Of a stretch of 64,000 bases of DNA, positions 29,038-53,857 are shown one piece after another. The notes below the pieces were generated by a model that saw nothing but the letters and a program-made list of their open reading frames with translations, searched no databases and was not told the origin of the DNA. Made by a program: the position numbers and the translations under genes. The DNA lies in contig OZ024749.1 of the NCBI GenBank assembly GCA_964016885.1, forward strand, positions 43,276,001 through 43,340,000, read 5' to 3'. Origin of the DNA: Eledone cirrhosa (taxonomy: Eukaryota). Each line of letters begins with the position of its first letter. Position 1 is the stretch's first letter.

Positions 29038-29108
29038 TATTTTATTATGCGCATTTCAAAAACAAATATCATCATGCAATAATATTTGTGTTTTCATCAG
29101 AATAAATA
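29038..29108 (-). ncRNA. Minimal type I hammerhead ribozyme, family H copy 1
   Basis: Minus strand: tatttatt-CTGATGA-AAAcACAAATATTAT tgcatg ATGATATTTGTtTTT-GAAA-TGCGCA-TA-ataaaata. Stem II pairs at 14 of 15 positions and stem III is palindromic. Stem I is partly decayed. Confidence 0.8.
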
Positions 29109-29552
29109 GGAAGACATGATATGAAGGTTAAAAAACACTTGTGGATAGTGCAGTTTTAAATCAACATATGAGAAGTAGTTTTAGATTGATGTGTGATATT
29201 GGGAAAAAAATATTTTTTGAGGGGGGGGGGGTGAAAAAGAGGAGGAGATGAGAGTAAAAAGTGGAGAAGGAGGAGTATAATGAGGAAGGATGAGATAGGA
29301 GGAGAGATGGGTGATAGAGAGAGAGAGAGATAGCTTTTATAGCTGAGAGAAATATATTGTTTTACATAGAGAGGTTGAAAAACCGTTGGAAGATAATATA
29401 TAAATTAAAAGAATTTGAAAATTAACGAAGAGAAAAATAATGTAAAGTCACCTCCTACATATATATATATATATATATATATATATATATATATATATAT
29501 ATATATATTTACAGTATATATATATACTGTATATAGTATATATATATATATT

Positions 29553-29741
29553 CAATAAAAGTCCGTTATAACGAAATTCACGGGGTGTAAAATTAATTTA
29601 TCGTAACGAAAAATTATTTATAGATCAAAAATTAACTATAGATCGATCTAACATATTGAACGTGTCGCCAGGGATTGAAAACAATTTCGTTATACTGAAA
29701 AATTCGTTATGACAGTCATCGTTATAACAGAATTTTACCTG
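29553..29741. mobile_element. Tigger/pogo-like MITE, copy 2
   Basis: CAATAAAAGTCCGTTATAACGA...TCGTTATAACAGAATTTTACCTG|TA, imperfect terminal inverted repeats. Confidence 0.7.
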
Positions 29742-31094
29742 TATATGTATATATATGCATATATATATATATATACAGAGAGAGAGAGACGAGTGTATGT
29801 GTGTGTGGTGTGTCCGGGGTAACCACAAATAAAAAAAGGTCCTCAATACATTGTTAGACTATAGGCATCTATATAATACATACAGAATACAGAAATGACT
29901 CTCACAGGTCCAGAACTGTTTCATATATCAGCAGGGGCTTCCATTAACAACACCACAATCATTACTCCCACCAACCACCAAAGCCATAATCAATATGACT
30001 CAACAACGACGTCACCACCACCACCACCACCACTACCACCACCACCACCACCACCACCACCTCCACCATCATCATCATTATTTTTATTATTCTTTAAGTA
30101 ATTGTTAAATCCATATTCCAGCTGCAATCAAGATATATATATATATATATATATATATATATATATATATATATATATATATATATATATATATACTAAA
30201 CATAGTTAATTTATTTAATTGTTTCATTTGAATGCTCTGAAAATGTAGAGAAATGTGTTTGTCTTTCTCAGAAATATTTATGTAGTAGATGCGAATATTT
30301 CTTCACTTCTGCTATTTCTACCTCAATACTCTTACCTTGATGATGGCTGCCGAGTAGTATGCTTTGTGCTATTCGTCCAGATTTTAGTTTAAATTCCACA
30401 AAGATCAACCATACCTTTTATCCTCACAATATTGATAGATAAAGTAACATTCCACTAACTCGTGTCGATTCTTGCTATATTCTCTTTCTTTCTCCCTTGT
30501 CTATAAATCGGTCGGTCGGTCTGTCTGTCTGTCTGTCTATCTATCTATCTATCTATCTATCTATCTATCTATCTATCTATCTATCTATCTATCTATCTAT
30601 ATGTCTATCTCTCTTTCTCTCTCTCTATCTATCAATATCTCTCATTCTTTCTCTCTCTCTATCTATCTATCTATCTATCTATCTATCGACCTATCTATCT
30701 ATCTGTCTATCTATCTATATATGCAGCAAAAACGTAGTGATTTCCAGAGATTGACTGAGATGGGACTGTCAATCTTTCCGTTGTTTCTTACAATCTCTTT
30801 ATCCTATGAGCCCTCCATTTTGAATATATATATATATATAAGGTCCTAGGGTCAACGTCATTGACTTTGCCCTACACCCAGAATTTTAACCTGGTACTTT
30901 TTGTAGTGTTTGTTTTGCTGTTTATTTTGTTATATAATGAGTCATATCTGTAGGTGAGGTAGACTATAATTATCAGAAATATTTCTTTATATTAATGTAT
31001 TTAAGCAATTTTTAGTTCGGCACAGATACCTTTCTGTTATTTGAAATGTTGGTGGCTTAACACTAGATATATGTTGAGTAAACATTAGACAATT

Positions 31095-31395
31095 AATACT
31101 ACTGCAACAGCGACGACGACGACGACTACAACGACAACGACAACGACAACGACAACGACAACAACAACTACTACTACTACTACTACGGCTACTACTACTA
31201 CTACTGCTACGATTGCTACTACTAATACTACTATTACAACTATTACTACTACCACGAAAAATAATAATAAATATTATTATGATACAAGAAGAAGAAGAAG
31301 AAGAAGAAGAAGAAGAAGAAGAAGAAGAAGAAGAAGAAGAAGAAGAAGAAGAAGAAGAACAACAACAACAACAACAACAACAACAACAACAGCAA
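31095..31395. repeat. Compound (CGA)/(CAACGA)/(CTA)/(GAA)/(CAA) microsatellite
   Basis: Seen directly. Confidence 0.95.
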
Positions 31396-51247: not shown

Positions 51248-51470
51248 TAGGAACCAGTAGGACCCCGACAGCTGAGCTCAAGCCGTTTCGACGGCTAATT
51301 CTGGACTAAAATCCTAATTCTGGACTTTTTAGTCCAGAATTAGCCGTCGAAACGGCTTGAGCTCAGCTGTCGGGGTCCTACTGGTTCCTATTACCCACTC
51401 TACTACCTCAAGTATTGAGTACTTTGGTGCGTTATGGTCCACCTGGTTCCTTACCACATTTCCTTCGTTA
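51248..51470 (+). mobile_element. Fold-back family A, copy 6
   Basis: About 63-bp arms with a duplicated centre, plus the full tail. Confidence 0.9.
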
Positions 51471-53313
51471 TATACATATATATATATATGAGACAGTAAA
51501 ACATAGACCTGAATGATAGAGACCTAGTTCGAATACAAATATAAATTAAAAAACATATGCACATAAACACACACTCCAGTAAACAACTATGTTGTATATA
51601 TTAAAATAAAGGGATATAACGCCAAAAAGATAAGCGACATTAATCTATAATACCGTAGCTATTAGTTCTTCGGTAAACCGTGTATTGTTTGATAGGGAGC
51701 TGAATAGATTCTAATATACACATTTTTATACTTACTATACAAAGTTCATTTGGTAATAATTTCATTTTACACTTTAGTTTTCTATTTAAATATAATAAAT
51801 ATAATAAAACACAATTCTGATGTCACTAAGTTTATAAATATCCGTTGAATCTTGAGTGTATGTGGTTTTGTGCATGTGACCAGCGTGTGTCTGTGTGTGT
51901 AATGGGTGTCAGTGTGTCTCTGTCGCACACATACACAGTCTCTCTCTCACTCCGTGCGTTGTTCTGTCTCTGTGTGTCCCTGATTCTGTCTGCCTGTCTC
52001 TATATATGAATGTGTATTATAGCTTCCGGCCCCATATTTTGTCAGATAGTGTTTCGCCAATGAAATTGTTATCTAAATCATGGATATTATCTACAGGGAA
52101 ATATGGAATAAATACTTCGAATGGTGAGTTAATATCATTACCAGGTCTTAAACTACTTTCTGGTGTTTGTCTTGTGTGCTGGTTTAACGCATTCATGTGG
52201 CCCTTTAGTGGAATGTATTGTGTTTCAAGCATTAGGACCACATCTCAACCCTCTCAAAATCCGACGCACCATTATCGGAAACACTTCATGGACACTAATC
52301 TTCCTTCACTAACGAAATATTAAAAGGGCTGACAATAGTAACAACAATTACAGGGGCAGAAAAGACATATCTTGTATTCAGCAGTCGACGGGGCATCAAC
52401 TTGCTTTCGCGACCTTCCAACATGACCACTCGACTCCAGCTGTGTCGGTAGTATTTAATCCATTCAGAAATCATACAAAATTACAAAGGATAAGAGAAAG
52501 GAAATAACAAAGAATAGCTTTTGTTTTGTTGACTTTATATCCTTATTGGAGTATCCAGAATTACGAACACAGGCTATACCTTAGCTTTCGCATCGTCATA
52601 AGGACCATGGAAACGGTAACGAGTGGCTGAGCTAAATTACAGTCTCACGAGAGAATCCTCATCTTTCTCACTCCACTTTACCATAGGATCAGTTGATATT
52701 ATTCTAATTACTATATAGACAGCTAAATCCAAGGCGAGAATATATCTACACGTTCCACTGAGAACAAATAGAAATACGACTACTACAATGAGTTCTTCAA
52801 ATGATTGACTATCTCAACAATGTTTCTAATAGAAATTTCACAAGATATTATTAGCTTGGAACCTAATCTTTTGATCATCATCGTAAATAAACAAAACAGA
52901 AATCTCTTGTGATTGTCATTCCATAAGATTTAAATTTTTTGTTCTTGATGAGCAAAGAACACACAATTTGAGACGTGGTAAAGATTGCTAGTAAATACGT
53001 TCAGGAACACACATCACACACAAATATATCTATCTATCTAAAAAGCGTGAACCTAATAAACTCATATTTGTACTGCCTCTCTGTTTTTGTCCTGTCTAAG
53101 ATTTAAATATATATATGTATATATATATATATATATATACATATGTATATATATGTAAATAAGTATAAATACATACATATAAGTATCGCTATGTATGTAT
53201 ATATTTGAATCCTGTGTATGTAGTTGGTCATGTTTATATATTTCTGCATGTGTCACGTGTGACACAAGGTAAATAAATGTTATTTCTTTCTGTAATGTGA
53301 AGTATATCTTAAT

Positions 53314-53503
53314 AATTATTTCTACTTTTGGCACAAGGCCACCAATTATCCCAATACATTACTGGTACTTTATTTTATCGACCCCGTAAGGATGAAAGGC
53401 AAAGTTAACCTCGGCGGGATTTGAACTCAGACCATAAAGGGCCGTAACTCTTTGCTGCAAAGCATGGCGTCCGACCCTCTACCGATACAGCCAATCCACC
53501 GCC
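53314..53503 (-). mobile_element. SINE family 1, full length
   Basis: TSD GAAGTATA(T/A)CTTAATAAT. Confidence 0.92.
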
Positions 53504-53637
53504 CGAAGTATAACTTAATAATAATGATAACATACACACACATATATATATATAGAAATATATATGTGTGTGTGAATATATCTGAATATATATATTTGTA
53601 TATATATATATATATATATATATTATATATATATACA

Positions 53638-53857
53638 ATACGATATTAACAAATGGAAACTATATTTATAAAACCATATTTATTTTATTATACATATTTC
53701 AAGGATACCAAGTTAAATTATGGTATGCTTTCATCAGACAAAATACAATATATACCAGTTTTATAAATAAATATTGACATACCCTTTCAAAATGCTACCG
53801 TTACTTTTGGAAGACATCAGATTTTATAAATATAGTTTCCATTTGTTAATATCGTAT
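53638..53857 (-). mobile_element. Ribozyme-containing element with a perfect 36-bp inverted copy of its tail
   Basis: ATACGATATTAACAAATGGAAACTATATTTATAAAA (53638-53673) is the inverse of 53822-53857. Confidence 0.85.
53681..53745 (-). ncRNA. Minimal type I hammerhead ribozyme, family H copy 3
   Basis: Minus strand: TATTTTGT-CTGATGA-AAGcATACCA taatttaact TGGTATcCTT-GAAA-TATGTA-TA-ATAAAATA. Stem I has 8 pairs and stem II pairs at 9 of 10. Confidence 0.88.

Follow-up and report, generated by a model that had tools for sequence, protein, structure and literature searches.

Three hammerhead ribozyme motifs lie within 64,000 nucleotides (nt) of genomic DNA from Eledone cirrhosa (contig OZ024749.1, positions 43,276,001 to 43,340,000; this whole stretch is referred to below as the window). 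The motifs are very probably the ends of truncated Penelope-like elements (PLEs), retrotransposons of the Hydra clade. Each belongs to a separate high-copy family, named W29, W44 and W53, in which insertions close at either of two fixed ends, A and B, located just before a repeated hairpin. Two-armed insertions typically have one end of each kind, and many arms begin at a fixed 5' stop. These features go beyond what is known for the class. That the window copies are truncated two-armed insertions of three related Hydra-clade families, made by a two-point priming mechanism proposed below, is in our judgment reasonably likely at best.

Three hammerhead motifs in the window

The motifs are the following (bp, base pairs):

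29037..29109, minus strand: W29 hammerhead motif, type I, with a broken stem I; predicted cut after 29046.
44329..44391, plus strand: W44 hammerhead motif, type I, with a 12-bp stem I, a 7-bp stem II containing a C-A mismatch, and stem III ATATGTAT; predicted cut after 44379.
53681..53745, minus strand: W53 hammerhead motif, type I, with an 8-bp stem I, a stem II containing a C-C mismatch, and stem III ATATGTAT; predicted cut after 53689.

The CTGATGA ... GAAA cores are found at 29094-29100 (minus), 44341-44347 (plus) and 53731-53737 (minus), within a common hammerhead frame that an original prediction, made from the letters of the window alone, had correctly placed at these three loci. Stem II pairs in each copy and leaves an unpaired C at position 4, while stem III is made of 8 self-complementary nt (ATGCGCAT at 29047-29054; ATATGTAT at 44371-44378 and 53690-53697); the paired stem II and the palindromic stem III had both been described. 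An AUA triplet precedes the predicted cut in all three motifs, which agrees with the position after 44379 proposed for the plus copy. Tails measured from the cut site are 38 nt (29-kb copy), 53 nt (44-kb copy) and 48 nt (53-kb copy) long and lead into (TA)n, again as expected. In none of the three motifs can the 8-nt stem III form a hairpin by itself; the predicted free energy of its self-duplex is -10.5 kcal/mol for ATGCGCAT and only -2.2 for ATATGTAT.

A strict type I hammerhead descriptor gave two matches in the window, at the 44-kb and 53-kb copies and nowhere else. The mean over 200 block-wise dinucleotide shuffles was 0.015 matches with a stem I of at least 3 bp and 0 with at least 4 bp. 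The 29-kb copy failed the descriptor because the 5' strand of its stem I, TTTATT, departs from the family sequence TTTTAT; the stem is paired in the family copies of this motif. The description of the three as intact minimal hammerheads thus stands for the 44-kb and 53-kb copies and fails at stem I of the 29-kb copy, where decay of the 5' strand had in fact been recognized. Folding z-scores of the three motifs are modest (-2.5, -1.0 and -0.9). The Rfam match anticipated for these motifs was not obtained: no hammerhead family was reported at E<=10 in the interval 44300-44420, which holds the 44-kb copy, and none was among the 150 listed of 421 matches for the whole window, the scans giving only microsatellite-driven, microRNA-like matches.

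The stem II sequences had been regarded as unrelated, one having been replaced by another. They were compared over 24 natural hammerhead variants, hand-picked from 249 motifs in sampled genomic loci; the variants are related and were collected through the core pattern, so that the covariation speaks to the stems and not to the core. The proximal 8 bp of stem II align without gaps over all 24 variants, with intermediates connecting them, and the 5' strands of the three window copies have 3-5 of 8 bases in common. Position 4 is unpaired in every variant and a C in 23 of them; the other seven positions are paired in 157 of 168 cells (a strand-swap control gave a mean of 126.6 and a maximum of 140). 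Over all 18 hammerhead pairs, 95.1% of the cells are paired and 14 pairs have changed on both sides. None of 500 shuffles attained the observed values, a count that is not a probability because the variants are kin; slid structures paired in 35-58%. The gap-free alignment, the intermediates and the two-sided changes therefore show that stem II diverged with compensatory changes and was not replaced or swapped between copies. The hammerhead structure is selected between families, as the prediction had held. The first stem II pair (10.1-11.1), given as a conserved G-C in PMC4209133, is mostly A-U or G-U here and G-C in just 3 of the 24 variants. In view of this rarity, ribozyme activity may be low.

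Families, reading frames and clade

A first look at the 3.0-Gb genome yielded 2,886 W29 candidates, the best 40 of which are 94-97% identical to the 29-kb copy. Exact genome-wide matches of family patterns number 2,153 for W44 (23-nt pattern) and 869 for W53 (21-nt pattern). The common hammerhead frame has 54,750 exact matches in the genome, and the reversed pattern has none, consistent with the expectation that such motifs exceed chance. Because the frame occurs about once per 55 kb, three motifs in 64 kb are not special. At least three further hammerhead lineages were seen in the flanks of sampled loci (L003:3245, L004:1256/1317, L029:2493; L010:1193, L027:2359, L175; L042), and the figure of 54,750 is therefore a lower bound.

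Upstream of the hammerhead, each family has a 3' untranslated region (UTR) of 1.0-1.85 kb, preceded by an open reading frame (ORF) with reverse transcriptase (RT) and C-terminal endonuclease (EN). Among the W29 matches, 18 of 107 scored lie inside an open frame of 821 amino acids (aa); the arm is continuous with the RT-EN ORF in loci L043-L045 and L116-L135, and 11 of 17 inspected ORF-bearing loci contain a partial tandem of hammerhead, extension, ORF and 3' UTR. Open frames of W53 span about 745 aa. The longest W44 frame in ten loci examined has 636 aa, and a W44 sister family reaches 750 aa. Aligned with the W29 ORF, identity is 53% for the W53 ORF and 52% for the W44 ORF. The unit length from hammerhead to hammerhead is about 3.7-4.3 kb. 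Within the window, the ORF list and tblastn revealed no PLE protein, and the three copies have no ORF nearby. Thus, the statement that no RT or GIY-YIG ORF is attached applies to the window copies and not to their families: longer genomic copies linked to a PLE RT-EN ORF were found for all three, upstream of the same hammerhead. Rather than a single ORF-less ribozyme retroelement lineage, the motifs very probably represent truncated ends of three autonomous-type families, and the tie of PLE-type type I hammerheads to (TA)n was upheld.

The Hydra clade is defined by DKT, RWK, a CxCX5C linker, and CxxC and CxH around E and N; a canonical hammerhead and insertion in (TA)n are found in nearly all of its families (PMC8557442). 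The present elements share with the clade, and with its member Hydra-1_Obim of Octopus bimaculoides, a single RT-EN ORF with DKT, RWK-like, CxCX5C and CxxC/CxH motifs (PMC8557442). They also share a type I hammerhead near the 3' end, insertion in (TA)n, partial tandems, an inverted 5'-truncated copy and a one-sided tail (PMC8557442); the last three make up the PLE layout, the partial tandem corresponding to the pseudo-long terminal repeat (pLTR). SDKT occurs in W29, W53 and W44, with YRDD, and the RT motifs and the Y-x-G endonuclease motifs are visible in the alignment. The linker, the CxxC..E..N..CxH arrangement and the C-terminal EN are present in full W29 and W53 ORFs and in W44 pieces (loci L106/L107/L148/L150). 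Most of the 252 arm ends described in the next section adjoin TA runs. By eye, the ORFs match the published N-terminal half of Hydra-1_Obim motif by motif, and their best named protein relative is from Argonauta hians; a PDB sequence search yielded no name. RT and GIY-YIG folds are suggested by the motifs and by Atlas look-alikes of the ORFs, a lead in which 18-92% of members bear an RVT_1 label and 31-50% a GIY-YIG label. The Neptune clade had been the first guess; DKT and CxCX5C, instead of DKG and a CX2-5CxxC linker, ruled it out.

Some points count against the Hydra assignment. The position of the RWK motif reads RWT in W29 and RWR in W53 and W44. Units of the present length, with their 3' UTRs of 1.0-1.85 kb, exceed the <3 kb that is 'generally' found in published Hydra PLEs (PMC8557442). 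Pfam recognized none of six ORFs and, among eight, gave one weak GIY-YIG match (E 0.012). No complete W44 ORF was found among the ten loci examined.

The ORFs of L116, L137 and L151 contain asparagine-rich inserts of varied length between the RT thumb and the linker, resembling the N-rich inserts carried by rotifer Penelope elements (PMC3846280).

Fixed ends, hairpins and the 5' stop

All three window copies are laid out as (TA)n, inverted arm, forward arm with hammerhead, and (TA)n. Their parts are:

29008..29447, minus strand: W29 arm to end A, comprising the last ~400 nt of the 3' UTR/pLTR, the hammerhead and a 38-nt tail.
29448..29459, plus strand: W29 inverted stub to end B, 12 nt, the reverse complement of the family extension end seen in L029, L035, L036 and L038.
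44114..44250, minus strand: W44 inverted arm to end B, comprising the tail and an extension of ~105 nt.
44182..44211, minus strand: W44 hairpin copy 1, ACTC ... TT GAGT GCT, just 3' of end A in the element RNA; z -2.8.
44285..44432, plus strand: W44 arm to end A, with its start about 95 nt ahead of the cut site, where the W44 5' stop hotspot lies.
53641..53821, minus strand: W53 arm to end A, with its start about 132 nt ahead of the cut site, where the W53 5' stop hotspot lies.
53822..53945, plus strand: W53 inverted arm to end B, comprising 36 nt shared with the tail and an extension of ~90 nt.
53862..53884, plus strand: W53 hairpin copy 1, ACTC ... TC GAGT GCT; z -0.5.

The junction of the A and B arms in the 44-kb copy contains a 38-nt tandem duplication (44216-44291).

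Ends were counted in 170 loci chosen by pattern and not by layout, from which 252 arms were mapped on natural reference copies. The arms end 120 times at A, about +38 to +56 from the cut site, and 120 times at B, about +131 to +158; 3 read through into the ORF and 9 end elsewhere. Among 82 two-armed insertions, 75 combine A with B, 3 have A twice, 1 has B twice and 3 are unclassified (P=2.6e-18 for the one-A-one-B pairing in 75 of 79 classifiable insertions). The two arms of one insertion differ less than arms of different insertions, with 1.2 vs 7.1, 1.5 vs 5.5 and 3.2 vs 7.6 differences per 106 nt (17, 11 and 6 pairs). Full-length ORF copies close with the same A and B ends.

In copies that read through these positions, a small hairpin begins 4-12 nt downstream of each 3' end. 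Its form is ACTC..GAGT-GCT past A and GCTC..GAGC-GCT past B; a 2-nt bulge is present, and the upper stem varies. The window copies have neither hairpin 2 nor an ORF and were probably dead on arrival.

At the predicted cut site, the first 100 of 5,265 W29 matches, chosen on the extension alone, were read by eye: 69 arms pass through, 30 start downstream and 1 starts there. A hotspot of arm starts at the cut site was thereby rejected. These 100 matches contain no genomic footprint of hammerhead cleavage; therefore, the ribozyme does not appear to define the inserted ends.

Arm starts instead pile up further upstream, at -130 to -119 from the cut site in W29 (27 of 55 arms), -143 to -128 in W53 (21 of 48) and -103 to -94 in W44 (19 of 38). 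The W29 sample was not selected for upstream sequence, and clean references were used for mapping. The 44-kb (-95) and 53-kb (-132) window copies belong to this 5' stop class; the 29-kb copy is longer. Genome-wide, 1,624 head-to-head junctions were found at W29 -124, as opposed to 1 at a palindrome 17 nt away, and the 5' stop was accordingly rejected as a mere palindrome effect. Fifty listed W29 junctions were inspected by eye: 8 have a G untemplated by the element, 9 are ambiguous, 29 are overlaps and 4 are of other kinds. An extra G opposite the cap is a feature of L1. The 5' stops fall at or near a C-A step, and TCACT at the W44 stop is preceded by a TATA-like run at a distance of 23-30 nt. 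This site resembles the TATA-20 nt-TCACT arrangement of the rotifer pLTR (PMC3846280); the Penelope promoter sits in the pLTR (PMC2377424).

Similar hairpins were encountered elsewhere. Hairpin 1 is common to some further hammerhead lineages (L175, L234). The window has one isolated match to the hairpin motif (20560-20590, minus strand; ACTC ... TA GAGT GCT) that belongs to none of the three elements and may represent an extension arm from a further family. In L021, L200, L202, L204 and L252, another kind of repeat, inserted after the PLEs, has a hairpin-like GCCC...CT GGGT GCTT; it is possibly a parasite using the same signal, or a chance resemblance. By eye, GCTC...GAGC-ACT hairpins with a 2-nt bulge can be seen in published Hydra consensus sequences from a coral, a sea cucumber (two copies), a copepod and an octopus, hence in four phyla, after the hammerhead or before the ATG (PMC8557442 File S7).

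The window also contains sequences reminiscent of other hammerheads. CTGANGA...GAAA cores with a paired stem II and no stem I, decayed or fortuitous, are found at 8074 (plus) and 12388 (plus). A fourth hammerhead-shaped motif (2863-2930), of an unrelated family, occupies an island of ~200 nt between (TA)n runs (2823-3027, minus strand); it has the core CTGACGA, a 6-bp stem I, an ACC-TTT-GGT stem III and a GUA site. Next to (TA)n at 4724-4955, and also in L029, L014, L018 and L019, there is a short inverted repeat of very common occurrence; it holds GTCGAAAC followed by a hairpin and GTC, and resembles the 3' half of another hammerhead family. A fold-back island with inverted arms of ~50 nt (28740-28935) lies directly past the (TA)n of the 29-kb element, and a 187-nt tandem duplication of a common interspersed repeat is found at 40239-40608; the repeat is also present at about 53320-53500.

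A proposed two-point priming mechanism and its alternatives

The following mechanism is proposed. Transcription would start in the upstream pLTR promoter and read the hammerhead, the two hairpins and the ORF; the 5' stop would then correspond to the start of the capped transcript. The element protein would cut the (TA)n tract on both strands, and target-primed reverse transcription would proceed from both, with uncleaved RNA as the template, one DNA end priming at A and its counterpart at B. Copies would stop at random, or run off the RNA 5' end when the front of the transcript serves as template, and the two copies would be joined head to head. Short stubs such as those at 44 and 53 kb would be run-off copies of the front end of the RNA. 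The hairpins may position the enzyme, and the hammerhead could be a slow, dimer- or protein-dependent ribozyme, selected in master elements and dispensable for making template ends. A broader version, to which we give slightly less than even weight, is that a duplicated cis-acting RNA hairpin, found from coral to cephalopod, serves as a template boundary, a dimeric RT-endonuclease docking on both copies and priming one target strand from each.

Several observations weigh against two-point priming. The end bins of the arm census are 12-26 nt wide, on account of TA microhomology, and the W44 reference stops at B, so that read-through in this family could not be seen. Only 9 of the 34 pairs have the partner arm as the strictly nearest relative (25 when ties are included), and gene conversion between inverted arms could be the source of arm similarity. 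The hairpins fold weakly in three of four cases (z -2.8, -0.5, -1.4 and -0.2), W29 hairpin copy 1 folds in a different register, and the lower stem contains a single two-sided change (A-U in copy 1, G-C in copy 2). Selection of the W44 and W53 samples relied on a pattern lying just within the 5' stop, which biases those two hotspot counts. Finally, no clear TATA box precedes the W29 stop at the -30 position.

Three other explanations were considered. The inverted layout might arise through self-priming, the Hydra PLE copy folding back on an antisense template or at palindromes, with the fixed 5' position marking a pause of the RT. Such a route was proposed for rotifer PLEs from palindromic junctions (PMC3846280), and the W29 stop does sit within a CATATG palindrome. 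We nonetheless consider it unlikely: the comparable palindrome 17 nt away has its single junction against 1,624, the -124 stop of A arms persists where they join short B arms at unrelated positions, untemplated G is seen at 8 of the 50 listed junctions, and folding back does not by itself yield the one-A-one-B rule. Just below self-priming in our estimate ranks the idea that short fold-back copies act as non-autonomous mini-elements: these Hydra PLE ends would themselves undergo transcription and amplification in trans, and their fixed ends would reflect a few masters. Non-autonomous PLE derivatives have been described (MRC1; PMC8557442), the 40 best matches to the 44-kb and 53-kb copies share their overall layout, and 23 of the 50 listed W29 junctions are identical 4-nt overlaps. 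Yet junctions vary between copies, and the remaining 27 are of other types; stubs occur in several subfamilies, each with its own diagnostic changes, and lack hairpin 2, while full-length ORF copies have the A and B ends of the stubs.

Least probable is a retrozyme-like lineage lacking an ORF, in which the hammerhead (as a dimer) excises the RNA and copies exchange their stem II. The three window copies without a nearby ORF and the structure conserved between families would suit it. However, it is largely refuted by the ORF-bearing copies of all three families; the gap-free alignment of stem II through intermediates speaks against exchange, tandem monomers bounded by cut sites were not found in W29, W44 or W53 among the loci examined, and one arm in 100 starts at the cut site. 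A non-LTR retrozyme (LTR, long terminal repeat) was ruled out on the coding capacity of the parents and this last count. Metazoan non-LTR retrozymes are non-coding tandem monomers. The three motifs, unlike these, belong to coding PLEs and do not have the cut site as their boundary, the likeness being that of short hammerhead-bearing repeats in animal genomes (PMC7229834).

Two-point priming has a close precedent, and the core of a mechanism with two internal starts is already published for another PLE (PMC11167929). With Poseidon of Anolis carolinensis (PAc), two internal RT starts delimit the tail in vitro and both target strands are extended (PMC11167929). PAc hammerhead cleavage occurs only with protein and is unnecessary, uncleaved RNA being the main template (Frangieh et al. 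2024, PMC11167929). Two start points downstream of the hammerhead, an AT-rich target, and cutting and extension of both strands, proposed here from genomic copies, are as in PAc (PMC11167929). PAc belongs to another clade, however, and starts inside the ORF in an AC-rich stem-loop, whereas the present starts would lie in the 5' UTR just before the repeated hairpin; in vitro, no difference in start site between the strands was seen with PAc (PMC11167929), whereas the insertions in the present genome combine an A end with a B end.

Hydra PLEs with hammerheads and (TA)n targets are likewise already known, Octopus included (PMC8557442). The present hammerhead sequence is unlike the one listed for Hydra-1_Obim, and the tail is 85-105 nt here as against 30-40 in published Hydra PLEs, with at least 54,750 motifs in this genome (PMC8557442). 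Craig et al. (2021) ascribed the tail to endonuclease-mediated resolution, and the hairpins go unmentioned in the parts of their account used here (PMC8557442). As in the minimal hammerheads of PLEs, the motifs are type I with a helix II of 7-8 bp, a palindromic helix III and compensatory changes between many families (PMC4209133), and most of them are solitary, dispersed copies that derive from truncated PLEs (Cervera and de la Pena 2014, PMC4209133). Helix III is an 8-nt palindrome here and not absent, as in minimal hammerheads, and the motif count exceeds the 2,000-9,000 per genome given there (PMC4209133). Low, dimer-dependent activity is reported for minimal hammerheads (review PMC6765202). 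In the open-access literature text searched, with the PMC11167929 supplements outside its scope, neither the pairing of ends with hairpins, nor the A-plus-B rule, nor the fixed 5' stop was found.

As a ribozyme discovery the motifs are ordinary, since ends of this kind are expected from a PLE clade that has been described and is on record for an octopus. Their importance is modest and concerns the making of PLE inverted copies and tails, and the job of the hammerhead. The families make a precise prediction that can be checked by counting: each strand would have one of two starts specified by hairpins, copies would run off at a fixed 5' end, and cleavage would leave no footprint. With many uninterrupted ORFs at hand, the model is therefore testable with the assay published for the anole element. 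If it is true, hairpin docking would give the strict one-A-one-B inverted insertion together with the tail, and both copies would terminate by run-off where an uncleaved transcript has its capped 5' end. Should the hairpin reading hold, tens of thousands of such events would be recorded in the genome, and selection would maintain the hammerhead for some function apart from template making.

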